The position numbers and the translations under genes were made by a program. DNA of 63,947 nucleotides from a virus (taxonomy: Duplodnaviria; Caudoviricetes), in the IMG/VR virus record IMGVR_UViG_3300045932_000268, positions 1 through 63,947 of that record; one strand, 5' to 3'. Below, piece after piece: positions 10,030 through 27,885 of this stretch. Each line of letters opens with the position of its first letter. Position 1 is the stretch's first letter. The notes beneath the pieces were generated by a model. The model worked only from the letters and a program-made list of their open reading frames with translations, was not told the DNA's origin and made no database searches.

Positions 10030-10167
10030 TTACGCTCTCGTCTTGCCCCGGCCCCGCGCTTTGCCGCCACGCCGTTTCGGGAGCACCGGCACGGGCTTCT
10101 GTTCGAACGCCCGGCGGTGCGGACTCTTCCCGGCGGGATCGGCTGCCGCAAATTTCCGCGTCTTCAT
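10030..10167 (-). CDS. Small basic peptide (45 aa)
   Basis: MKTRKF...KRRGGKARGRGKTRA with a GGAGGAG SD; fills the intergenic gap exactly. Confidence 0.55.
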   Translation of the reverse strand: MKTRKFAAADPAGKSPHRRAFEQKPVPVLPKRRGGKARGRGKTRA

Positions 10168-10859
10168 CACTCCTCCTCCTGCGGCGTGGCCGCCATGACC
10201 GCCGCCGCCGCTTCCAGTTGCGCCACCGCCGCCTCGAGTGGCGGAATCCGGGGATCGAGCGGCACGGCATCGCCAATGGTGTAGGGCGTCAGAATGCCTC
10301 CGCCGGCAAACTGCACATCGACCGGCACCGGCACCAGATAGACACTGAAGTAGCCGTTCTCGTCGGCGAGGAACGGATTGAGATGGGGTGTCGAGGCTTG
10401 GTCCGCGAAGAGCTCGACCAGCGCGGTCGTGCCCGATTCGAGCACGGTGACGGTCGCGCCCGGGGCCAGCCCGAGCGGCGCGTTGGTCAGATTCGGCGTC
10501 AGGGGCCGGACGTAGGCGTAGCCGTAGTAGTGGATGTAGCCGACCACCGGACGCAGGATCACCCCCGGCATGCCCATCTGGAACGTCAGCGCCGGTGAGA
10601 TCTCGCCGCCCGGATTCTGCACCTTCACGCTGTACGTGCCGGGCGTCGCCACCAGCGGCTGCGTCGTCAGTACGCGCACCACGTCCGGGGTCACGCTGAG
10701 GATGTCGGCGTCGTGCAGGATGACCTCTTCGTTCGAGGGGATCGTCCACAGCACCCAGGCCCCCGGCTCGAAGTCGGACCCGAAGAGCGCGAAGGTCCAC
10801 GTCGGCGGGGACAGCGTGACGTTGACGAGCATGAGGCTCGACACAAGGGGCGTGGCCAT
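10167..10859 (-). CDS. Virion accessory protein: Ig/TIG-like domain, head-binding-like beta domain and short coiled coil
   Basis: GSDFEPGA...GTYSVKVQNPGG (TIG-like); PGATVTV...NPFLADENGYFSVY; DPRIPPLEAAVAQLE. Confidence 0.6.
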   Translation of the reverse strand: MATPLVSSLMLVNVTLSPPTWTFALFGSDFEPGAWVLWTIPSNEEVILHDADILSVTPDVVRVLTTQPLVATPGTYSVKVQNPGGEISPALTFQMGMPGVILRPVVGYIHYYGYAYVRPLTPNLTNAPLGLAPGATVTVLESGTTALVELFADQASTPHLNPFLADENGYFSVYLVPVPVDVQFAGGGILTPYTIGDAVPLDPRIPPLEAAVAQLEAAAAVMAATPQEEE

Positions 10860-11162
10860 TTACGCGCCCTCCGCCGCGAGGAACAGCGCTGACACCCGCT
10901 GCTCGAGATCTGCGACGCGCGGATCGAGCACGAGCACGTCGGACAGCGTGTAGGTGCGGCCGTCGGCCTCCCGCACGACGAGATCGATCGCGGCGGGCAC
11001 CACATACAGGCTGTAATAGCCGTCGCGGTCGGCGACGAAGGGATTGCCGAGGGGTTGGCTGCTGTCGATTTTGACGCCCAGCATCTGGTGCTCAGGCTGC
11101 TGGTGCAGCCGGATGTCCAGCCGGGCACCGGGTGTCACCCCCAGCACCTCAGGAGTCGGCAT
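10860..11162 (-). CDS. Virion accessory protein, N-terminally truncated paralog of the 10167-10859 C-terminal domain
   Basis: LGVTPGA...NPFVADRDGYYSLY...DPRVADLE aligns by eye with the neighbour; own GGAGGTG SD. Confidence 0.7.
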   Translation of the reverse strand: MPTPEVLGVTPGARLDIRLHQQPEHQMLGVKIDSSQPLGNPFVADRDGYYSLYVVPAAIDLVVREADGRTYTLSDVLVLDPRVADLEQRVSALFLAAEGA

Positions 11163-12438
11163 CGGTCACCTCCACCTCGTCTGCGGGTCGTCGGACAGCA
11201 TACCCGTAATAGTGGATCTTGGGGCCAGAAACCGGGCGCCGGATGTCGATCGGCTCGATCGGCACCGCCAGCGGCGCCACGAGGATCTCCAGCGGGATCT
11301 GCGACAGGCGGACTTCGGGAATGAGCCGACGGATGATCTCGATCAGCACCTGGCTGACGCTGGCCACGCCCGGGTGCCCGCGCTTGTCGCGGGCCAGTTC
11401 GATGACGGCCTGCGTCGTGTCAATGGCGGAGTCGAGTTGCTGATGGGCGATCTCGAGCGGGGCCTGCGTAACAGTGAGGACGGAGGCCTGACGAGCGGCC
11501 AGCTCCAGGGACAGTTGCGTAGCCGAGACATCCTCCGAGGGGAGCGTCTCGCGGAGCACTTCGAGCGGAAGTTGCGAGAGCCGCGCGTCGACCGGTCCGA
11601 CCGGAACGAGGAGGAGCACTTCGATGGGGAGTTGCGAGAGCTGTGCGAGGATCGGGGCGGCACTGGACGAGTGCAGCACCTCGAGCGGCGCTTGCGACAC
11701 CCGCAGCGCAACTGGCTGGTCGGAGAGGACGAGCACCTCGAGCGGCGCTTGCGAGAGCTGTGCGGTGGTGACGACCGCCGTCGTGGCGAACGCCGCGAGC
11801 ACGGCCGACCACGGCCCACTCACGCTGTTCGTCCAGCTACCGCTGGTCGTCGTGCCGGAGGCGGACGTCAGGATTCGGCGGTCGGCTTCACCCGCGATCC
11901 GATCGTAGGGCAGTTCCTCGAACACCTCCGTCCAGGGGGGACTGACCGCAGCCACCGTGATCGCGGACTGTGCTGCCGACACGGCGTGCTGCACGACGAC
12001 GAAGACCTCGCTGGCGGTGAGCGCCGCCGTGCTGCCGGTCGCTGGGGCGGCGGAACTCCCGGTCGCGGACACGGTTGTGTCCGTCGCCAACGACCCGCCG
12101 CCGAGACCGCCGACCTCGATCGCCGCCCCGACCCAGAAGGGACCGCCGGTCAGCGACGAGATGGTGATCGTGAAGGTGCCCGCACTGGTAGCGACGAGCG
12201 GGCAGAGAAAGATGACGGCCTCGTTGACGCCACTCGTGTTGCTCGCGCGCACGACCTGGGCGTAGGCGGCATGGCCCTGGTTGTCGGTGCAGGTGAGCGA
12301 GCTTTCGAACGCGCCCCACTTGTTGATACAGACGAGGAGGGCATTGCCGATGGTGGGCAGGGTCGCGAAGGTGATCGTGAAGGTGCCGCTTTGGTTGCTG
12401 GTGTGCTTCGCGGTGGTCTGGACGTGGGTGAGCGCCAT
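11149..12438 (-). CDS. Fibre-like virion protein with about 9 SQxPxE repeats
   Basis: Ser/Thr/Ala-rich beta N-domain, repeat shaft, C-terminal IHYYGYAVRRP. Confidence 0.65.
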   Translation of the reverse strand: MALTHVQTTAKHTSNQSGTFTITFATLPTIGNALLVCINKWGAFESSLTCTDNQGHAAYAQVVRASNTSGVNEAVIFLCPLVATSAGTFTITISSLTGGPFWVGAAIEVGGLGGGSLATDTTVSATGSSAAPATGSTAALTASEVFVVVQHAVSAAQSAITVAAVSPPWTEVFEELPYDRIAGEADRRILTSASGTTTSGSWTNSVSGPWSAVLAAFATTAVVTTAQLSQAPLEVLVLSDQPVALRVSQAPLEVLHSSSAAPILAQLSQLPIEVLLLVPVGPVDARLSQLPLEVLRETLPSEDVSATQLSLELAARQASVLTVTQAPLEIAHQQLDSAIDTTQAVIELARDKRGHPGVASVSQVLIEIIRRLIPEVRLSQIPLEILVAPLAVPIEPIDIRRPVSGPKIHYYGYAVRRPADEVEVTDADS

Positions 12439-12460
12439 CGCCGAATCCGACCCCGCCCGA

Positions 12461-13501
12461 TCAGGCGGTGACTTTCATCCCCGCTTCGAGCGCCGCGAGA
12501 TCGGCCGCCGTCCAAGCCACGCCGGTCGCCGGGTTGACCGCCCGCACCTCGGAGAAGTACCCGAAGGTCGTGCTGGGCGCGACGTTCGCCCCGTCGTAGT
12601 CGGTGCCACTGGCGCGCACGACCGCGCAGACCTGGCGGGTGGCGGCGTCCGACTTGGCGACGTAAAGGTTGGTCTGGATGCCGAGGATCGCGCCAGTGAG
12701 CGAGAGGGACGGGTAGTGGTAGGTGTCCTTGGCGCCGACGGTCGCCGAGCTGTTGTAGTCGGTGATATTCGGCGGGTTCTCATCGACCAGCGCGCCGTGG
12801 TCGGTGCCGGTCGAGGGCGTCAGGCCGAGGTTGGTGCCGTTGCCGGTCTGCGGCAGCAGCGTCTCCACTTTCACCGGACCGAGGAAGTCGTTGTTGGTCG
12901 AGCCGGAGGTATCGCAGACGTAGACGTCGTCAACTGCGGACTCGCCGCCACTCCCGCCCAGCAGGATTCGATCCCATTGCCCGGTCGCCCCCGCGTTGTT
13001 GGTATCCACCCCGCTGGCCGTGAGGCCGGGGACGGCGACGCCATCGACCCGCACCTCGTAGGTGCCGGTCGTGTCGTGAATCACGGTCTTCAGCTCCACG
13101 TATTGCCAGCTCGCGGTCACGATGGCCGGGCTGCTGCTGGTGGCGAGCGTCGTGGCCCCGCGCTTGACGATGAGGGTGCCGCCGCTCCCCACACTCAGCT
13201 CGATGTGGACGGTGGTCCCTTCGCGCACCTGGAAGAGCACGGCGCCGATCTGGATCGTGGTCGTGCGGAACGCCGCGCCTACGATGGCGCCTCCGGAGGC
13301 GGGCAGCACCTTGGTGATGGCGTGGTTCCCGCTGGAACTGCCCCCATTGACGAACCGGACCGCGCCGACGCCGGTCCGCGTAAACCAGGGATTGAGGAAC
13401 AGGGAGTTGGTGGTCTCGTACTTCGTGGCCAGCGCCGCGGAGTCGTTCGGCCCCTCGCGCGGCCCGCAGTGATCGAAGCCGTCCATGAAGCGCAGCGCCA
13501 T
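12461..13501 (-). CDS. Virion protein, concanavalin/LamG-like (paralog A)
   Basis: MALRFMDGFD; WQYVELK...YEVRVDG...VDDVYV pattern. Confidence 0.6.
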   Translation of the reverse strand: MALRFMDGFDHCGPREGPNDSAALATKYETTNSLFLNPWFTRTGVGAVRFVNGGSSSGNHAITKVLPASGGAIVGAAFRTTTIQIGAVLFQVREGTTVHIELSVGSGGTLIVKRGATTLATSSSPAIVTASWQYVELKTVIHDTTGTYEVRVDGVAVPGLTASGVDTNNAGATGQWDRILLGGSGGESAVDDVYVCDTSGSTNNDFLGPVKVETLLPQTGNGTNLGLTPSTGTDHGALVDENPPNITDYNSSATVGAKDTYHYPSLSLTGAILGIQTNLYVAKSDAATRQVCAVVRASGTDYDGANVAPSTTFGYFSEVRAVNPATGVAWTAADLAALEAGMKVTA

Positions 13502-14530
13502 CTACGCATCCCTCCTGACACCCGCCTGCAGCGCGTTGACGTTGGCATCGGTGAGCGGGTCGCCGTTCGGCATGGTCACGAAGCAGTCGCGGTTGCGGTA
13601 GAAGTAAGTCGAGGCGAGCGAGCGCGTGACGAGCGGCGTCGTCGTGCCGGCATGGCGCAGGAGCGGCGTCAGGGTGGCGTAGCCTTCCTCCGTGCGGCGG
13701 GCGTCGATCAAGAGCTGGGCGCCGATGATGCCGTTGTTCGTGTTGAGGTCTTCCATCTCGTAGAGGTCGGAGAGGCCCGCGGTCGCGGCGGTCACCTTCG
13801 TGGCCTCGTCATCGGGCGTCTGGTCGTTGACCGCGTCCCAGTTGGCCGCCGCGCCCGCCGGCGTCCACTGAGTGACCGCGCCGACGCCGTTCGGTCGAAT
13901 CACGCTGATCTCGACGTCCCCGAGCGGGGCGTTCCACGGTGCCGGGCCGGAGCCATCCAGGATGTAGACGTCATCGATCCCCGCCGCATTGGTCGCGCCG
14001 CCGATGACGACCTGCGTCCAGCCGTAGGGCGAGAGCCCATAGGGCGAGGCGGGGGTGGTTCCCAAGCCCGTCGGGATGTCGAGGACGAGCAGCCCATCGA
14101 TCCAGGCTCGCGCGCTGAGGACGGCGACACTGGCGGGCGGCACGGGCGCGACGAGGGTCTCGACTTCGAGATACACCCACTGACTGGTGTGCAGCGTGTC
14201 CACGGCGGAGAGATGCCCGACGCCATCCGGTCCAGTGATCCGGAGTCGGCCGGCGCCGATCGCGTCCACACCGTAATAGGTGCCGTGGATGTCGCCGAGC
14301 GCCAGGCCGGTGGCGCCGCCGAAGCCGCTGAAGTTGATCGCCATCCCGACGACGGCGGTGGAACTCGCGATATTCGGGAGTCCGATCACCCCGGTGCCGT
14401 TCATTCCGTTGCCGTGGCGGCCATAGAGACTGTGGATCGACAGGGCGTGGGTGGTGGTGTACTTCCGGTCGGCGCCCCCGAAGACCGCCGTGTCGTAGTG
14501 ATCGAAGCTGTCGAGGAAGAGCAGCGCCAT
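13502..14530 (-). CDS. Virion protein, concanavalin/LamG-like (paralog B)
   Basis: MALLFLDSFD; WVYLEVE...IDDVYI; C-terminus NALQAGV resembles AALEAGM of paralog A. Confidence 0.6.
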   Translation of the reverse strand: MALLFLDSFDHYDTAVFGGADRKYTTTHALSIHSLYGRHGNGMNGTGVIGLPNIASSTAVVGMAINFSGFGGATGLALGDIHGTYYGVDAIGAGRLRITGPDGVGHLSAVDTLHTSQWVYLEVETLVAPVPPASVAVLSARAWIDGLLVLDIPTGLGTTPASPYGLSPYGWTQVVIGGATNAAGIDDVYILDGSGPAPWNAPLGDVEISVIRPNGVGAVTQWTPAGAAANWDAVNDQTPDDEATKVTAATAGLSDLYEMEDLNTNNGIIGAQLLIDARRTEEGYATLTPLLRHAGTTTPLVTRSLASTYFYRNRDCFVTMPNGDPLTDANVNALQAGVRRDA

Positions 14531-14537
14531 CAGATCC

Positions 14538-14702
14538 TCACGTCGTGGTCGGCCGCACCGCGTAGCCATAGTGGTGGAGCGTGGTGCCCCACGCGCGCAC
14601 CGGCGCGGGAGCAGGCGCGGGAGCGTCCCGTGAGGCAGGCGGTGGGTCAGGTGCCTCCTTTGGGGGCGGTACCGCCGGAGGCGAGGAGAGCGCGTCCGTC
14701 AT
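14538..14702 (-). CDS. 54-aa Pro-rich peptide ending in LHHYGYAVRP (not in the ORF track)
   Basis: Translated by hand: MTDALSSPPAVPPPKEAPDPPPASRDAPAPAPAPVRAWGTTLHHYGYAVRPTTT*; fills the gap between flanking genes. Confidence 0.6.
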   Translation of the reverse strand: MTDALSSPPAVPPPKEAPDPPPASRDAPAPAPAPVRAWGTTLHHYGYAVRPTTT

Positions 14703-14706
14703 CCGC

Positions 14707-14928
14707 TTACGCTTTCTCCGCCTTGGCCGGCGTCGGCTCCATGCTCGGCCCCTCCGGCATGGTGCCTTTGATCGACTCGTCAGTGAATTTGAGCGGCAGG
14801 CCGCCGTCCACGCCGGCCGGGCCGACGTTCGGATGCTTGGTGTAGGACCCGGGCGCCTCGGTATATGAGGTCACGGTCTTGAACGGGGTCAAGGGCGACT
14901 CAATGCGCCCTTTGCCTTTGTCTGGCAT
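14707..14928 (-). CDS. Small hypothetical protein
   Basis: MPDKGKGRIE... preceded by a GGAGGT SD. Confidence 0.65.
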   Translation of the reverse strand: MPDKGKGRIESPLTPFKTVTSYTEAPGSYTKHPNVGPAGVDGGLPLKFTDESIKGTMPEGPSMEPTPAKAEKA

Positions 14929-14930
14929 GA

Positions 14931-15938
14931 CTACCTCCACCAGTAGTATTCCGATCCCATGCTGTGACTTTGGAGAAATTTCGAATCGACCGGCCCGAAC
15001 GCCGGCCAGAGCCGTTTCGGTCCGACCATGCTCTGCAGATAGACGTTATCGTCCTGGAGCTTCGCCGCTTGCAGGTCCAACAAATAGTCGCCGCGCGCCT
15101 CGCGAATCAGATACTGCCAGTTGGTGCGCTGGAGCGCCGGGAACCGCCCCGCATTCGCCGCCGCCCATGGATACGCCGAGCGGTAGAGCGCCCGGTTGAG
15201 CAGCAGCCCATCGGGCAGCATCTGCGGCAGCGCCTGCGTCCCCTGCGTGAAGGGCAGGCCCTGCCGCTTGTAGAGACAGATGAAGGTCTGCCCGCCGGTC
15301 GGGTGCGGCCAGAATTCATAGCGCGGCACCCCGGTCACCGTCGGCGCGTAGTCCGCGATGTAGTACGCGAGATCGCCGGCCGCCCGTTGCGGGTCGCGCA
15401 CATCGAGCCACGCCTTGCTCCGGTCCAGCTTCAGCTCAATGCCGTTGATGGGATCGAGCACCGAGAGCCACCGGTTGAAGTCGAATTCCCCCGGCAGCGT
15501 GTTGACGAGCGCCTCCGCCGGCGGCAGGAAGTAGCACTGGAAGAGCCGATACCCGAGGCCGGTCCCGGAGGCCTCCACCACGGGGCGATCGAGGGTGAGC
15601 GGGCCGGTGGGCGTCGTCCAGCCCACGATGTTGTAAATCCCGCCCTCGGCGGCGACCCGAAACTGACGCTGCAGGAGACTCGCCTGGGGCACGGCGGCCC
15701 ACGCCGCGGCCGCCGTCGCATCGGGCACAACGGTGGGTGATCCCTGCGTGAGCGTGACCGTGCCCGCCGTGATCAGCGGCGGCGCCGTGACGGTGCCCTC
15801 GGCGACGAGGAAGGACCAGGTGCGTTTGTCGAGCAGGTCGCGCCAGGCGCGCGAGAGATCCCGCCGCGCCTTGAGCGCCGAGTAATCGGGGATCAGCCCG
15901 GTGATCTCGCTGACCAGTTCGTGGACGGTGAGCGGCAC
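14931..15938 (-). CDS. Head-tail adaptor / tubular protein A-like
   Basis: N-terminal helices, WSFL motif, FWPHP motif, C-terminal helix; located after the capsid genes. Confidence 0.6.
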   Translation of the reverse strand: MPLTVHELVSEITGLIPDYSALKARRDLSRAWRDLLDKRTWSFLVAEGTVTAPPLITAGTVTLTQGSPTVVPDATAAAAWAAVPQASLLQRQFRVAAEGGIYNIVGWTTPTGPLTLDRPVVEASGTGLGYRLFQCYFLPPAEALVNTLPGEFDFNRWLSVLDPINGIELKLDRSKAWLDVRDPQRAAGDLAYYIADYAPTVTGVPRYEFWPHPTGGQTFICLYKRQGLPFTQGTQALPQMLPDGLLLNRALYRSAYPWAAANAGRFPALQRTNWQYLIREARGDYLLDLQAAKLQDDNVYLQSMVGPKRLWPAFGPVDSKFLQSHSMGSEYYWWR

Positions 15939-16319: not shown

Positions 16320-17018
16320 TTAGCGGTCCGTCTTGTTCCCCGCGCGGCCCGTCGCCTTCCGCTCCTCGCCCTTGTCCTCCGCCTCGGCCTCCTTCGCCTC
16401 CTTCGCGGTCTTGGCCGCCGTGGCCTCCTTCGCGTCCTTGGCGGCCTTGGCGGCCTTGGCCTTTTCCTTGGCGTCCGCCTCGGCCTCTTGGGCGACCTTG
16501 GCCTTTTCCTTGGCCTGCGCCTCGGCCTCCTGGGCTTCCCCGGCCTTCGCTTGGGCCAGCGCCTCCGCCTCTTGCGCGTCCTGGGCCTTGGCCTCGGCCT
16601 CGTCCTCCGGGGCCTTCATCAGCAGAGGCGTAATCGTGCCCGTCGGCGGCAGACTCGACGTCTGGATGAGCGTGTAGTTGCCCGGGGTCACGCTGGGCGT
16701 CAGGTTGGTGCCCGCGGCCGTCCCGGCGCCGGTCGTCACCTGATACAGGTGCCGCGACACGCTCGCGTCCCAGTTGAGCGTGGCCCCCGCCGCCGGGGAG
16801 CTCGCCCCCGGCGCGAGGCGCACGTACATGAACTTGCCCGGCCCGACTGGCGTCGAGGGCGTCTTGAGCTTGATCATCTGCTGGGTGAGTTCGACTTCCA
16901 TGCCGAGCTGCCCGGCGAATTTCGACAGCCCGGTCGGACTCGCCGTCCCGCCCCCGATGACCGCGTCGTTGACGTCGTCGACATAGCCGCTGGCAATGCG
17001 CAGAATCTGTGAGAGCAT
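16320..17018 (-). CDS. Putative capsid cement/decoration protein with Ala/Lys/Glu-rich tail
   Basis: Directly after the MCP; GKFMYVR beta domain followed by EAEAKAK-type repeats. Confidence 0.5.
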   Translation of the reverse strand: MLSQILRIASGYVDDVNDAVIGGGTASPTGLSKFAGQLGMEVELTQQMIKLKTPSTPVGPGKFMYVRLAPGASSPAAGATLNWDASVSRHLYQVTTGAGTAAGTNLTPSVTPGNYTLIQTSSLPPTGTITPLLMKAPEDEAEAKAQDAQEAEALAQAKAGEAQEAEAQAKEKAKVAQEAEADAKEKAKAAKAAKDAKEATAAKTAKEAKEAEAEDKGEERKATGRAGNKTDR

Positions 17019-17076: not shown

Positions 17077-18231
17077 TCAACCCCCGAAACCGTATGCCTG
17101 CACGTTGGTCCGCGGCGAGGTGCACTGCAGTTGCTGCATCGCCTTCACCGTGCCGACGACCCGCGAATTGTCCTGCGCGGGAATGAACCCGCTGAAGCCG
17201 TAGCCGTAGACCGGGTTGTCCGCAATGCGGAAGAGCCAGTCGCTCATCCGGAACATGCCCAGCACTTCCGCCACCGTTACCGTAGTCCCGGAGGGCGGCA
17301 GATTGGACTGCGCCGACGCCGTCCCGCCGTTGGCGGTCGTGCCCGGCGAGGTGAACGTCCCGGTCAGGTAGTTGCCGAGGTCGGGATCGTTGACGCCAAA
17401 CTTCAAGGACGGGAAGTAATCGTCCTTGAGGAACATGGCGTTGTTGATCTTCATCCCGCTGGTGCCCCAGTAGGGATCCCGCTCTTGGGCAAACCGCTGC
17501 TGCGGCTGAATCTTCTCTTTGATGTAGGCGTACAGCGCCTTGTTGCAGGTGATCAGATCCGGCTCCTTGTTGCCGACGCTCGCCGTCTGATAGAGCTCCT
17601 CGACCACCGCGTAGGAGATCGGCGCGGCCGCCCCGGTCGTCGGGTTGCCGCCGAAGTAGGGAATCGAGTTGAGCGTCGAGCCCACGAAGCCGTTGCGCAC
17701 CTGCGTGCCGTAGCTCGTGAAGATCGAGCCGTCCCACCCGGGCGTCTTGCCGTCGTTGAGCGCCTCGGGCCAGCCGTTGAGGCTGTTGGGCCGGGTGCCG
17801 ATGACGCCGCCGCCGGCCGTCTGCCCGTGCCGCGCCAGATCCACCGCCACGATCGCCGTAATGGTGTTCATGGCGTTGGTGAGATCGGTGTTGACGAGCG
17901 AGAAGGCCGCCAGCTCGCCGACGTTCTCGACCAGGATCTGCTCGAGGTACTCGGGCACCGCCACCTCGTAGTACTTCGGATCGAAGAAGGTCGCCGTCAG
18001 CGTCTGCCGCTTGGTGATGTTCCAGGTGGCGCCGGGCGCGTAGGCGCCGCCGATCATCGGCCGCACGATGTGCGTGTTCTGCATGAAGGCGCCGCCGCTG
18101 AAGGGCGCCAGCGACTTCGCGCGCAGATACGCCGCAAACGGCGTGGCCTTGAAGAACTGGTCGAAGATGACGCGCGGCCAGATCTCCTTCAAGGTCGTAA
18201 CGTTAAGCTCATCCAACACGGGATCTGGCAT
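17077..18231 (-). CDS. Major capsid protein
   Basis: 384 aa after the scaffold; PDLITCN...QPQQRF pattern typical of HK97-fold capsids. Confidence 0.8.
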   Translation of the reverse strand: MPDPVLDELNVTTLKEIWPRVIFDQFFKATPFAAYLRAKSLAPFSGGAFMQNTHIVRPMIGGAYAPGATWNITKRQTLTATFFDPKYYEVAVPEYLEQILVENVGELAAFSLVNTDLTNAMNTITAIVAVDLARHGQTAGGGVIGTRPNSLNGWPEALNDGKTPGWDGSIFTSYGTQVRNGFVGSTLNSIPYFGGNPTTGAAAPISYAVVEELYQTASVGNKEPDLITCNKALYAYIKEKIQPQQRFAQERDPYWGTSGMKINNAMFLKDDYFPSLKFGVNDPDLGNYLTGTFTSPGTTANGGTASAQSNLPPSGTTVTVAEVLGMFRMSDWLFRIADNPVYGYGFSGFIPAQDNSRVVGTVKAMQQLQCTSPRTNVQAYGFGG

Positions 18232-21442: not shown

Positions 21443-21706
21443 TCAGCAGACGTCCCGCGTCTCTTCCCAGGTGATCCAGACCTCCTGGCCTTGGGAATAA
21501 TCGACCAGCAGGCGTCCGGATTTGCCGTAGCGGTGGATCCACCGTTCGAGCTCCGTCCAGCAGCGGGCCGGCAACCGCACCGTCACCCGCTCCGCCACCG
21601 TCTGCCCGAACGACCACGCAATGCGTTCGATGCTCTCGGTGCGATAGAACGTGGGCACCCCGTCGTCAGCCTGGGGGTGGGCGCCGTGGCCGTTGGTACT
21701 GCTCAT
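21443..21706 (-). CDS. Hypothetical protein
   Basis: MSSTNGHG... overlaps the portal stop (ATGA). Confidence 0.55.
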   Translation of the reverse strand: MSSTNGHGAHPQADDGVPTFYRTESIERIAWSFGQTVAERVTVRLPARCWTELERWIHRYGKSGRLLVDYSQGQEVWITWEETRDVC

Positions 21707-23754
21707 GAGGTGGCAATCGTGCTGCGTGTCCCGCCGTCCTTCTGCTGAATGTGCGGCGTCCGTTGATAGGTCGGCGGGCGCCCGCGGGGAGCGCCGGTAG
21801 ACACGCCGCCGCCGTTGGACGGAGCGCCCGTCGTCGGCCCCATCTGCTGCTGCGCCTCCGCCGCGAGGTCGGCCAGCAGGTGCTGCCACGCCACCCACCG
21901 CTCGATGATGTTGTTGGCGCCCTTGGGCGGCGGGCCGAAGTTGTCGATCTCGTAGAGCTCGGCTTTCGTCCACGGATCCATCGGGAAGCCGGTCTTCTCC
22001 AGTTGGAGCAGCAACAGTTTCTGGCTCATCGTCTGCAGCCGCGCCATCGAGTTCGGCACGACGTAGTACTCGAAATTGGCGGCGTGGCGGCGGGCCCGTT
22101 CGACCAGCGTGTAGCGGGACGGCCCCTGCTCGGCGTTTTCCCCCGGCAGGTGCGACGGCACGAGCGTCCCCGGATCCCAGTCGAAATCTTCCTCAACGGC
22201 GCCGTCGGGGCCGAGAATCTCCATGCGCTTGCGCAGCGGCCGAAACTGCAGGTTGAGGTAGCGGCGGAGTTCGCCGAGATCCCGCATGCCGCGCTCCATG
22301 CTGCGCGTCATGTCCTGCGCGAGCGGCCCGGCCATCTCCAGAATCTTCTCGATGGTGCCTTCCGAGGGGATCTGCCGCGCCTTGGCCATCGCCACCAGAT
22401 CGCGCACGCCCATCATGTGGTCCTGGCGCTCCTCCATCTGCTGCACCCAGACCGGAATGTAGGCGGGGAGGTCGGCGTAGTTGACCGGCAGGATCGGCCG
22501 GATCGGCTCGCCCATCTGCATGTTGAGCCGGTACATCTGGCGCGGCTGCCGCGGGTTCCACCGCCCCGCGAGCCGTTCGCTGACGAGGTTTTCGTCGGCC
22601 GCCATCGGCGGCGCGAGGCGAATCATGGCGGCGTCGGTGATCCCGCGCATCAGGGCGTTGTTGTCCTCTTCGATCGCCTTCACGTCGTGGATGAGCGAGA
22701 AGCCGAGCGCCTCCCACGGCCAGTCATCGAAGCGGAAGCGGGTGAGCGGCACCAGGCCGTGCCACCACGGCGAGCTGTCATCCTCGAGGAGCACGCGCGA
22801 GGTCGCCACCATGCGCCGGCGCAGCGGATAGAGCCGCGCATCGTCGAAGGTTGCCTTGCGGTAGAGCGGCACCCCCTCCCAGCCGAAGGTCCCGGTCGGA
22901 ATGTCGCTTCCGAGCGAGGGGACCGTATACGCCCACGACGTGCCCGGCTTGCCCATCAGGACGTCGTGCCCGGTCGTGTTGATCGACTGGTCAAAGATGT
23001 AGGCCTCATAGACGTCGCAGGTGGGGAAGATGTCGTCGCGCCCCTCGCGCTCAGCCGTCACCCCGGAGAGCGCCCGCAGCGGGGAGGTCATGAACGACTG
23101 CACGTAATCGAGCCCCTTGCGCGTCCACGCCTTGGCCCCGTGATCGGGCGCCACCTCCGCCGCCCGCGTCGGATACTTCGCCCAGATCAGGTGAATCGGC
23201 ACCCGCGACAGCGTGATCACCGCGTAGCAGCGTTGCAGGTCGTGATCACGCGGCGGGTTGATGAGATAGACCTCGCGCGCCCCCCACACATCGGTACGAA
23301 TGTCGCCCCGGCCCGGCCCGTGGAAGTCCGGATCCCACACGTGGCCGATGTAGCCAGTCCCGGTGACGGCCGTCTCCTGAAACCCCTCACGAAACGACCG
23401 GTCGGCAAACGTGTTGTACCACCACCACTTGTCCAACTTGTTGAGGATGACCGCCTGGTTGTAGAAGTCCGGGTTGTCGGTCTTGTTGGCGGCGGTCGGG
23501 CGCAGGTTGGAGAGAATCGACACCAGTTCGCGGATCTGGCGCTTGCTGCGCGGCACGCGCACGCGCGACATGTCTTCGGGAATGGCTTCGGTGGTGGGGG
23601 AGAGGATGAGATCGAGCGCCTCGTCGATCGAGCCATACGGGCGCTGCTGTTTCAGCCACTGCTCGCCCTGGCTGATGATCTCGCGCAGCCACCCGACCTT
23701 GGTGTCCTCGCTCGACGCCGCCATCGGGGCCCGGTAGTCGCTCAGTCCGGTCAT
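21703..23754 (-). CDS. Portal protein
   Basis: 683 aa downstream of terL; TGTGYI..WDP and PWWHGLVPL..F motifs typical of podovirus portals. Confidence 0.8.
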   Translation of the reverse strand: MTGLSDYRAPMAASSEDTKVGWLREIISQGEQWLKQQRPYGSIDEALDLILSPTTEAIPEDMSRVRVPRSKRQIRELVSILSNLRPTAANKTDNPDFYNQAVILNKLDKWWWYNTFADRSFREGFQETAVTGTGYIGHVWDPDFHGPGRGDIRTDVWGAREVYLINPPRDHDLQRCYAVITLSRVPIHLIWAKYPTRAAEVAPDHGAKAWTRKGLDYVQSFMTSPLRALSGVTAEREGRDDIFPTCDVYEAYIFDQSINTTGHDVLMGKPGTSWAYTVPSLGSDIPTGTFGWEGVPLYRKATFDDARLYPLRRRMVATSRVLLEDDSSPWWHGLVPLTRFRFDDWPWEALGFSLIHDVKAIEEDNNALMRGITDAAMIRLAPPMAADENLVSERLAGRWNPRQPRQMYRLNMQMGEPIRPILPVNYADLPAYIPVWVQQMEERQDHMMGVRDLVAMAKARQIPSEGTIEKILEMAGPLAQDMTRSMERGMRDLGELRRYLNLQFRPLRKRMEILGPDGAVEEDFDWDPGTLVPSHLPGENAEQGPSRYTLVERARRHAANFEYYVVPNSMARLQTMSQKLLLLQLEKTGFPMDPWTKAELYEIDNFGPPPKGANNIIERWVAWQHLLADLAAEAQQQMGPTTGAPSNGGGVSTGAPRGRPPTYQRTPHIQQKDGGTRSTIATS

Positions 23755-25722: not shown

Positions 25723-27885
25723 TCACGCTCCCCGCCGCCACCGGCGCCGCGCCTCGCGCGCCACCTGCGCGTAGACGGCATCAAACCGCGGCGGCATCCC
25801 GTGCGGACTCACGTCCCGCCCCTGCCACCCCGGATCCCACACCGGATCCTCGCGCGCCAGCGTCGTCCGCCGGTCCGTTGCGGTCTGCCGCGGCCCGCGT
25901 GTCTCGTTCACATACCAGGAGAAGAGCAGCATGCCGGCGGCGACGATCCGATCATCGTGCCCGCCGTAGGCGGCCCGCGCCGATTGCGCCGCTTCGTCCT
26001 TTTCGAGCGATTCCATCTCCGCCACGAACATCGGCGAGGCCAGATCGATCCAGCCGTTGTTGATGTAGGTCTGCACCATGTCGAGCATCCAGGCGCGGGC
26101 CCACTGGTTGGAGAAGAAGCCGATCTTGTTGCTGCGCGTCCGCTGCATGCGTTGGTCGTAGCGTTGCCAGACGTGGAAGTTCCACCAGCCGCGCTTCTTC
26201 ATTTCGTACTGGACGGCTTCCCCCGAGCGCAGACAGTCGATCGACACCCGCGGTTGCCGCCGTTCCCCGTCGATCTCGGTCGCAAACAGGCTCCCGAGCG
26301 CATACGCCCACGGCCAGAAGCCCTGGCTGTTGATGTAGGGCGAGCACATCTCGACCACCTGCCCGTCGATCCGCGTCAGGCTCCCTTTGCGCAGGCCTTC
26401 GATCACCGAGGCGTCCAGCCCGATGCCGTCGCCGGTATCGACGCCGAAGCCGTACTCCTCGTCGGGCGCCGGCCACTCCCAGACGAAGATTTTGCCGTCG
26501 GTCGAGGCCCCGTAGCCGTCGTAGCGCACCGGCACCAGCTCGTAGCGCAGGTCGTGCGCGCCCCACTGCGCCCGAATCGGGATCGGGGGCAACCGGCTCT
26601 CGGTTTCCACCGACGTCGGCCGGTGTTCGATCGGCACATCCTCGCGCGCCGGCCCGAACCCCTGCAGTTTGTAGACGCCGATCGGCTCTTTCACCTGCTC
26701 GCGGCAGCGCGTGACGACCTCGACGCTGAACACCGAGTGATTCGTCGACTGAAACGCCTCGAAATCGTCCGCCGGACACTCCTGCAGGAAGCGATTGAGC
26801 TCGTTGCTCTGCTTGTACTCGTCGCGCGTGACCTCGTACCACCAGAGTTGCTCGCGCGGCAGCACCCAGCCCCGGCCGAGGTGCTGGCGGAGGCGCGGAT
26901 TGGCCTCCACGTAGGCGGCGGCCCGCGCCGCATACAGCTGGAGCGGCTCATCCGCACGCCAGTCGGGCGGGATCGGGTGTTTCCGCAACCACCCCTCGTC
27001 GGGATAGATGTCCCGGCCCACATACCACGGCAGGAAGATGGGGCAGAGGCGGGCCCGGCCGCGCGCCCAGCCCTCTTTGGAGAGCCGCCACTTGGCGTGC
27101 CACCAGTTATCGCGCCCGAGCGCCGTCGATTCGAGGATCGCGAACACGTAGGGCGTCTCGTGCACGGCGTTGAGGAAGCTGGCGTCGATGTCCTCGGCGG
27201 GATTGCTCCATTCGCACAGCTCGGAGAAGTGCGCGACGTTCGGGGTCGAGCCACGGCTGACGCCGCTGAACTGGTTCCCCGACTGCGAACAGTCGAGCGC
27301 CGAATTGTGGCCGCCGAATTCGGCCGGCATCAGCTTGGACACCTTGGTGACGCGCGGCATCAGCCACCACGGCGTGTGCTCCCACACCGTGCGGATCATC
27401 TTGGAGAGCTTTTCGGTCTTGATCGGCGTCGAGGAGGCGACGACCGCATCGACATCCGCCCAGAACTGCACGCGGTGCGCGACGGCGAGCTCGGTCAGCG
27501 TGGAGACGCCCAACTGGCGAGCCTTCAGTTGGATCATCATGATCGCCCACCGCTTGGCGTCCATCTCCGCCCAGAGATCGAGCACGATCTCCTGCGCCGC
27601 ATTCGGCCGGAAGGGCGTCAGGACCTTTTCGAAGCTGACGATCTTGGCGTAGCGCGTCGCCCAATAGCGGAAGTCGTGCGTGCAGATCAGGCGCTCGTGA
27701 TCGATGAAGGCGATCTCGTCGGGGGTCAAGCCGCGCGTGAGGTCTTTCGTCTCGGGATCCCACGCGTCGGCGAGGATCCCGGTCATGTGGGCGACGTCGG
27801 CCGCCTCCAAGTAGGTCGGATCGAAGCTGGGGGTGGCGCGGGCCTGCGCCGCAAGGAAGCGCCGTGTCGTGGCCGGGTCATACAT
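25723..27885 (-). CDS. terL: Terminase large subunit
   Basis: Walker A LKARQLGVST, AHFSE (Walker B), ILEST, nuclease motifs FGVDTG and HDDRI. Confidence 0.92.
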   Translation of the reverse strand: MYDPATTRRFLAAQARATPSFDPTYLEAADVAHMTGILADAWDPETKDLTRGLTPDEIAFIDHERLICTHDFRYWATRYAKIVSFEKVLTPFRPNAAQEIVLDLWAEMDAKRWAIMMIQLKARQLGVSTLTELAVAHRVQFWADVDAVVASSTPIKTEKLSKMIRTVWEHTPWWLMPRVTKVSKLMPAEFGGHNSALDCSQSGNQFSGVSRGSTPNVAHFSELCEWSNPAEDIDASFLNAVHETPYVFAILESTALGRDNWWHAKWRLSKEGWARGRARLCPIFLPWYVGRDIYPDEGWLRKHPIPPDWRADEPLQLYAARAAAYVEANPRLRQHLGRGWVLPREQLWWYEVTRDEYKQSNELNRFLQECPADDFEAFQSTNHSVFSVEVVTRCREQVKEPIGVYKLQGFGPAREDVPIEHRPTSVETESRLPPIPIRAQWGAHDLRYELVPVRYDGYGASTDGKIFVWEWPAPDEEYGFGVDTGDGIGLDASVIEGLRKGSLTRIDGQVVEMCSPYINSQGFWPWAYALGSLFATEIDGERRQPRVSIDCLRSGEAVQYEMKKRGWWNFHVWQRYDQRMQRTRSNKIGFFSNQWARAWMLDMVQTYINNGWIDLASPMFVAEMESLEKDEAAQSARAAYGGHDDRIVAAGMLLFSWYVNETRGPRQTATDRRTTLAREDPVWDPGWQGRDVSPHGMPPRFDAVYAQVAREARRRWRRGA

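Follow-up and report, generated by a model that had tools for sequence, protein, structure and literature searches.

A predicted phage anchor domain split after its first β-strand, which an upstream fibre-like protein retains as a C-terminal tag

In chaperone-usher pili, which assemble with a periplasmic chaperone and an usher, each pilin lacks its last (G) strand and is given it by the N-terminal extension of the next subunit, and the engineered SpyTag/SpyCatcher pair is a split CnaB2 domain locked by an isopeptide bond. Among phages, the head-binding domains of the fibre trimer of cyanophage A4 touch the adaptor and the nozzle, going by excerpts of that report (PMC12002296). Spikes of K1-5/SP6 (on the gp37 adapter) and of Klebsiella phages dock on an adapter or anchor through short conserved N-terminal peptides of 7–11 or more residues, according to the portion of the literature considered here (PMC6872550), and anchor/adapter docking of receptor-binding proteins (RBPs) is likewise described, in parts of two reports, for G7C and for KP32- and KP34-type Klebsiella phages (PMC6872550, PMC13352976). 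For phage A1002, the excerpted description is of a split nozzle, in which one protein supplies the strands that another lacks, and of fibre dimers that dock by β-sheet augmentation (PMC13730344). Here we describe a locus on the minus strand of IMG/VR record IMGVR_UViG_3300045932_000268 (hereafter, the window). This viral record is complete at 63,947 bp, carries direct terminal repeats, has a G+C content of ~68% and was analyzed over its whole length. At this locus, a small predicted virion-anchor domain appears to have been split between two adjacent genes, a 429-aa fibre-like protein keeping its first β-strand (strand A) and a 100-aa protein supplying the remainder. While tailspike head-binding anchors and modular fibre docking are known, what is new is the form that they take here, with a natural split after the first strand and exchangeable bodies that bear this strand as a C-terminal tag.

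The four open reading frames (ORFs) that carry either the domain or its first strand are all on the minus strand. The 230-aa protein (10167..10859) is composed of an N-terminal Ig-like domain, an intact domain of the head-binding-like type and a C-terminal helix; its strand A, IHYYGYAYVRP, is encoded at 10503..10535. The 100-aa protein LDPRVADLEQRVSAL (10860..11162) aligns to residues 122–219 of the 230-aa protein (36% identity, E 2.8e-12) and consists of the anchor domain, minus strand A, and the C-terminal helix. The 429-aa fibre-like protein (11149..12438) has an N-terminal globular part, eight repeats and, at its extreme C-terminal end, the strand-A tag IHYYGYAVRRP (11185..11217), followed by 11 residues. 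Lastly, a 54-aa ORF of doubtful coding status (14538..14702) combines a Pro/Ala-rich linker with an orphan strand-A tag, LHHYGYAVRP (14550..14579). All four ORFs and both tags thus lie exactly where the first-pass annotation, made from the letters of the window, had put them. A regular-expression search for H[HY]YGYA in the six-frame translation of the window returned three matches, solely in the 230-, 429- and 54-aa ORFs, and the back-translated DNA pattern also matched three times, against a mean of 0.00 in 100 shuffles. Since the DNA of these copies differs at many synonymous positions, we read them as old homologues at the protein level and not as a recent DNA repeat.

The 100-aa frame cannot encode the first strand, because a TGA closes it one codon (CCG) ahead of the ATG, leaving an open frame of 101 aa; the strand that is first in the modeled domain is accordingly missing, as had been claimed. 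The first 14 nt of the 100-aa gene coincide, in the +1 frame, with the end of the 429-aa gene, and the Shine-Dalgarno site of the 100-aa gene (GGAGGTGA, 11166..11173, minus strand), 3 nt ahead of its ATG, also lies within that end. In the 230-aa protein, for which we found five orthologues (62–73% identity), the strand-A residues H, Y, G, Y, A, R and P are invariant in 6/6 sequences. One of these orthologues, P0003 (L004, 5970-6821, plus strand), has ~60 extra C-terminal residues rich in Gly, Thr, Ala, Trp and Cys, which the other five lack.

In relatives, strand and domain are found joined. L003 encodes a single fusion of 806 aa, in which an unrelated body leads, through a Pro-rich linker and MHYYGYA, into a domain of the 100-aa type. 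P0012 (1075 aa) is also fused, and in L005 a single open frame runs through two consecutive body-linker-strand-domain modules, both copies fused, of which the upstream one is P0010, an orthologue of the window 429-aa body joined to tag and domain. The existence of these fused forms indicates that the tag and the 100-aa-type domain make one domain. By contrast, L004 is split like the window: an unrelated 1025-aa body ends with ...GPKIHVYGYAWRRPRS and is followed by TGA, GAGGAGG, 5 nt, and the ATG of a 98-aa protein. A third short form is P0013 (100 aa), and these three (window, L004, P0013) were the only proteins of 55–175 aa found in a search of 5.8 billion clusters. The subfamily tally is thus three split copies (with the upstream context of P0013 unseen) versus four fused ones (L003, P0012 and the two of L005); homologues of the 429/100 pair do not always form one ORF, a regularity that the first-pass annotation had said would count against a two-protein system.

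All three short forms begin 4–6 residues ahead of LG[LV]xxGA, and the gene is broken within the A–B loop, which in the fused forms can be anything from 8 to 14 residues long. The window and L004 junctions, with a Shine-Dalgarno site and an ATG at matching places, look homologous. We take the 429- and 100-aa genes to be a fibre-anchor gene cut in two just past strand A, in the loop, and one fission event is the simplest, though not a proven, reading. Searches of IMG/VR for relatives, with single proteins and with alignments, returned none, nor did a search of a genome contig collection, and a scan of IMG/VR with the back-translated tag HxYGYAx[R]2P gave four loci, all of them chance matches outside ORFs. 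The contig of P0012 measures 67,469 bp, and the contig of P0002, the closest 230-aa orthologue, is listed with the same size. In L005 (1-1416, plus strand), the first anchor continues into the next body with no intervening stop.

Each half is maintained after the split. Comparison of the window 100-aa gene with the L004 98-aa gene gave a ratio of non-synonymous to synonymous divergence (dN/dS) of 0.147, with dS at 1.3, and purifying selection is therefore acting on the strand-less 100-aa protein as the product of a gene in its own right. The sole significant similarity of the 429-aa protein to the 1025-aa protein is a 14-residue tag, 12/14 identical (E 6e-5), whose DNA shows six synonymous differences between window and L004; the tags stay 12/14 identical although synonymous sites are saturated. 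Because the tag alone is shared between these two unrelated bodies, what it accompanies is the 100-aa gene and not the body, and it is retained even though severed from its domain.

We then turn to the identity of the domain. Pfam and PHROGs hold no family for it. A profile (A2), built from 8 domain copies taken from the window and three related metagenome contigs, detected 700 proteins at E≤1e-3 among 1.84 billion representatives, 36 of them at E≤1e-10. In 136 of the best 150 of these 700 relatives, the match begins at residue ≤62, i.e. the domain is N-terminal. It is followed directly by a pectate-lyase-type β-helix (Pect-lyase_RHGA_epim) in P0017 and P0022 (2/10 relatives scanned with Pfam), and by a coiled coil and a small tip domain in P0016, P0018, P0020 and others; it lies C-terminal behind a poly-proline linker in P0024, P0029 and P0012, is internal in P0014 and P0015, and stands alone, intact, in P0021 (104 aa), as well as in P0027 and P0031. 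Against the PDB, the same profile matched the N-terminal domains of the Pan3 tail spike (9vyg, E 6.9e-4 to 9.1e-4) and the Pam1 'Tailspike head-binding domain' (7eeq_A, E 1.3e-3), the remaining five hits at E≤1 being unrelated designed proteins with E≥0.08.

Structural modeling gave a consistent picture. An AlphaFold2 (AF2) model of the C-terminal 124 residues of the 230-aa protein, from a 32-row alignment, reached a predicted local distance difference test (pLDDT) value of 89.7. A Foldseek search with it placed Pan3/Pam1 tailspike N-domains in the top four PDB positions (E 8.7e-4 to 6e-3, probability 1.00, template modeling (TM) scores of 0.38–0.54, these modest values being due in part to the long terminal helix of the model) and P22 head-binding domain entries (2vky, 1lkt) at ranks 5, 9 and 12. 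BFVD yielded 38 viral matches at E≤1e-3; tail spikes, tail fibres, depolymerases and pectate-lyase proteins are among those that bear a name. On the strength of the PDB profile, fold and BFVD matches and of the N-terminal siting in spikes, we assign the shared domain to the podovirus tailspike head-binding (virion-anchor) class, of which it is a remote member and no new fold; the proposal that it serves as a docking module is supported by the profile and fold matches alike. The H[HY]YGYA..RP motif corresponds to the first β-strand (modeled E3-8, with the first ten residues at pLDDT ~91), conserved across the family as xGYAxxRP and followed by TPNTTNAPLGLAPGA. The model of the whole 230-aa protein, from six sequences, had a pLDDT of 59.2, with β-strands at residues 10–96 predicted at moderate confidence. 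For the weaker hits, CarboxypepD_reg-type N-domains of TonB receptors were considered and dropped, Pfam giving 0/10 and the named relatives being phage spikes. A strand-less protein was also seen in another subfamily, of anchor, coiled coil and tip domain: P0155 (212 aa) starts at MPQPLVVLAPGATV, just past the point at which strand A would end. Either another split, independent of the first, or a wrongly called start could account for this, and it hints that the format arose more than once.

Compared with the podovirus tailspike head-binding domains (P22 gp9 N-domain, 1lkt and 2vky; Pam1, 7eeq; Pan3, 9vyg), the domain described here is alike in being a small β-sandwich followed by a helix, and in that most relatives carry it N-terminally on β-helix spikes. 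The similarity is remote (E ~1e-3, 21–24% identity), and in this lineage the domain is C-terminal to a variable body, its first strand being encoded, in three cases, by the preceding gene. The K1-5/KP32-type systems, insofar as the considered parts of their descriptions go, share with it a small virion-bound module, exchangeable spikes and a short conserved peptide; there, an N-terminal peptide binds a self-complete T4gp10-like branching domain, whereas the peptide described here is C-terminal and forms one of the strands of the anchor fold. No T4gp10-like domain was found by Pfam in nine neighboring proteins or among the PDB fold matches listed. From what the excerpts tell of the Pseudomonas podophage A1002 and of GP4, strands of one tail protein complete another in these phages, which gives a precedent for the mechanism, although the proteins and folds concerned (nozzle β-propeller, fibre dock) are different and the 346- and 429-aa proteins of the window bear no sequence likeness to them.

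Outside phages, the likeness to chaperone-usher pili, which the first-pass annotation had invoked, holds for the principle that an incomplete β-sandwich is completed by a strand of another polypeptide. It does not extend to the details, as here the first strand and not the last is missing, the donor is a C-terminal tail and no polymerization is implied; Pfam found no pilin, chaperone or usher family in the nine neighboring proteins. With SpyTag/SpyCatcher, the window pair has in common a short peptide and a strand-less sandwich. A CnaB2 domain came only at rank 15 of the Foldseek PDB list (E 0.17), and the motif core H[HY]YGYA of the three window copies contains no Lys, Asp or Asn, a Lys preceding the core in the 429-type tags only. 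No support was found for this analogy or for a covalent link in the window pair.

To the homology, the split, its recurrence in relatives and the selection on both halves, the reading that we favor adds reassembly in trans and attachment to the tail: the products of the split fibre-anchor gene would come together again by strand complementation and so tie the fibre to the tail, which we hold to be slightly the better bet. In this lineage, a proline-rich linker joins the anchor to the C-terminal side of fibre bodies that vary. Following the split between strands A and B, the 429-aa fibre is left with strand A alone at its C-terminus, and the 100-aa protein, made from its own strong ribosome site, has the rest of the sandwich and the C-terminal helix. 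Both products would be made side by side from one mRNA, and the overlap of the genes would favor their assembly. The fibre strand A could then insert into the open sheet of the 100-aa protein, and the rebuilt anchor, with its C-terminal helix, would sit on the tail and hold the fibre, the 230-aa protein acting as a second appendage with its anchor intact. Since both the 100-aa gene and the tag are under purifying selection, non-covalent strand complementation would be the likeliest mechanism. Prediction of a complex between the 100-aa protein (alignment A4) and the last 45 residues of the 429-aa protein (A5) scored 0.02; made without controls, it provides no answer and is evidence in neither direction.

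Several observations pull the other way. Just three split forms were found, one of them (P0013) with its upstream context unseen, and the tree leaves an unresolved trichotomy of the three short forms and the L003/P0012 pair. The two ORFs of L004 share one frame with a single TGA between them, so some fusion by read-through might occur there. The matches to solved head-binding domains are weak (E ~1e-3, TM 0.4–0.54), and docking on the tail would follow from homology and from nothing else. Finally, the linker-plus-strand of the 54-aa ORF is intact, with no stop, has GGAG upstream and begins 4 nt past the stop of the preceding gene.

These points leave room for other explanations. The 100-aa protein could work alone, as a bare tail anchor or plug or as a helper in fibre assembly, with the strand of the 429-aa protein acting otherwise, in fibre oligomerization or on another tail protein. 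The split form is indeed rare, with three short forms in 5.8 billion clusters, small free anchors are a known format of the family (P0021, P0027, P0031), and binding of the tag to the 100-aa protein is itself a deduction. Such independence would, however, leave unaccounted for a tag kept at 12/14 at the far end of two unrelated proteins despite saturated synonymous sites; moreover, the tag always lies directly upstream of the strand-less domain, and the same strand belongs to the same domain in every fused relative. We consider this explanation rather unlikely. Alternatively, recoding might join the ORFs: a +1 frameshift in the window and, in L004, translation through the UGA would then yield a whole domain, and the split would be apparent only. 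The 1025- and 98-aa ORFs of L004 do lie in one frame with one TGA between, and Fraser and colleagues reportedly described, in 2006, programmed frameshifts that add C-terminal Ig-like domains to phage structural proteins. For the window, though, a +1 shift would be needed at UCC-UGA-G, which is no known slippery site, the two genomes would require two different devices, and a strong Shine-Dalgarno site with an ATG stands at the matching place in both, where all three short forms start; recoding thus appears very improbable. Least credible of all is an artefact or decay, that is, an assembly or sequencing frameshift or a dying gene. The sequence does come from metagenomic assembly and the fused state is the commoner one in relatives (4/7), but a contig from a separate soil DNA run is identical over 10829-11207, spanning the junction, and the 100-aa protein is present on 6 contigs, which argues that the junction is no assembly slip. 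A dying gene is further at odds with the dN/dS value given above and with the recurrence of the split in L004 and P0013.

A further set of explanations depends on the 54-aa ORF. The first-pass annotation had taken the 100-aa protein for a free catcher with alternative partners, the 429-aa fibre or the 54-aa peptide, giving competing or regulated loading of appendages. The 54-aa ORF does show the usual Pro-rich linker of the family, uninterrupted and followed by strand A (as in P0024, P0029, L003 and L005), and its tag is closest to the 429 type. Contigs from RNA libraries also run from the 77-aa gene into it (X14, 14573-14882; X10, 14634-14935), which does not imply translation. Its coding signals are poor, however: G+C is flat across codon positions (0.727/0.727/0.764), with a third-position value (GC3) of 0.764 versus 0.83–0.91 in 12 neighboring genes, and GGAG stands 13 nt from the ATG versus 3–8 nt for clear sites nearby. 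It has no counterpart in L003 or L004 (2/2 relatives covering the place, where gaps of 192 and 70 nt are found), so that its lack of conservation, raised beforehand as a check, is borne out in these two relatives, and no orphan tags occur in L003-L005. With this sole second candidate so poorly backed, the idea of competing partners does not hold up well and is in our view unlikely as a full model. In a broader version, the 100-aa protein would be a free tail-bound socket and strand A a portable plug, such that any plug-ended protein, including the 54-aa peptide, could be loaded after translation; we give it equally little credence. Were it true, the phage could tune or cap the number of fibre-bearing sockets, and fibre bodies could be exchanged between phages with the anchor untouched. 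With somewhat more assurance, we infer that the 54-aa ORF is the leftover linker and strand of a former fibre gene, stranded by cassette exchange, although a small functional tagged peptide is possible. The 54-aa frame is also open for 56 codons upstream of its ATG (14703-14873, minus strand), a stretch that lies over the 77-aa gene in the +1 frame. With a G+C of 68%, alternative frames are often open, and a slippery site was not observed.

If the split fibre anchor does reassemble, it would represent a new natural docking format, of a polarity opposite to that of the known N-terminal peptides, and a small pair, made of an 11–14-residue tag and a 100-residue partner. Current 'plug-and-play' host-range engineering builds on RBPs that dock by means of short conserved peptides. 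If the pieces do not bind, the finding reduces to ordinary gene fission. Identifying a widespread but uncharacterised family (the 700 relatives at E≤1e-3) with the tailspike head-binding domain allows annotation of many 'hypothetical' phage proteins.

Regarding the fibre body itself, residues 229–386 of the 429-aa protein contain the 8 repeats, of the form [ST]Q.P[LI]E[VI]L, at a spacing of 17–36 residues; five looser repeats are present in its orthologue P0010, and a tandem-repeat search of the 429-aa gene returned three trivial DNA repeats only. Pfam found nothing in the fibre bodies P0007, P0008, P0010, P0014, P0029 and P0003. Between the 77-aa gene and the anchor lies a variable cassette that encodes, on the minus strand, a 346-aa protein (12461..13501; phrog_2448, E 4.8e-39) and its 342-aa paralogue (13502..14530; phrog_2448, E 5.9e-24). 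The longest ORF of the latter gene would give 355 aa, with 14531-14569 (minus strand) in addition and an ATG inside the YGYA codons of the orphan tag. The true start is probably the ATG at 14530, giving 342 aa, because GAGGA stands 5 nt upstream of it and the resulting N-terminus (MAL.F.D.FDH) resembles that of the paralogue.

Relatives of this phrog_2448 pair occur in 199 phage records, often at two places per record, and are all annotated as hypothetical. They are mostly from phages of Salmonella (92), Proteus (21), Caulobacter (17) and Brevundimonas (12), iEPS5/Utah-type and phiCbK-type phages included, groups that we take to be flagellum-dependent. By analogy with the 'rope' proteins of A1002 and GP4, as these are portrayed in the considered part of their description (PMC13730344), the 429-aa protein might use its repeats to dock the two phrog_2448 proteins in series. 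This idea found no sequence support, a PDB search with the 346- and 429-aa proteins giving only matches at E≥0.06, taken as chance.

In the wider genome, PHROG hits in the weak to moderate range identified, all on the minus strand, the large terminase (25723-27885), the portal (21703-23754) and the major head protein (17077-18231). Past the latter, the minus-strand order is of proteins of 232, 114, 335 and 77 aa, then the fibre/anchor region, then proteins of 443, 1312 and 1087 aa; the 443-aa protein belongs to phrog_399 'structural protein', and the 1312- and 1087-aa proteins to PHROG 'tail protein/minor head protein' families. Among the 20 window proteins scanned against PHROGs, none matched a tape-measure, tube or sheath family, which, together with the tailspike-type anchor, suggests without establishing it that the phage is short-tailed. 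A PDB sequence search with the 443-, 1312- and 335-aa proteins, candidates for the tail hub, gave no hits at E≤0.1, and a blastn search of the phage collection with the window gave no DNA match. The 232-aa protein (16320-17018, minus strand), whose gene adjoins that of the major head protein, matched no PHROG family; its C-terminal half is of low complexity and rich in Ala, Glu and Lys (AEAKAQDAQEAEA...).

Over 10100-14960, contigs from three soil metatranscriptome libraries are 99–100% identical to parts of the block, which is no proof of transcription as such libraries can hold DNA. They cover the 77-aa gene, both phrog_2448 genes and parts of the 429- and 230-aa genes, to the exclusion of the 429/100 junction and of the tag of the 54-aa ORF. 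The whole block probably forms one operon. The complete stretch is held by six soil-metagenome runs, and a seventh run contains 70% of the sampled words.

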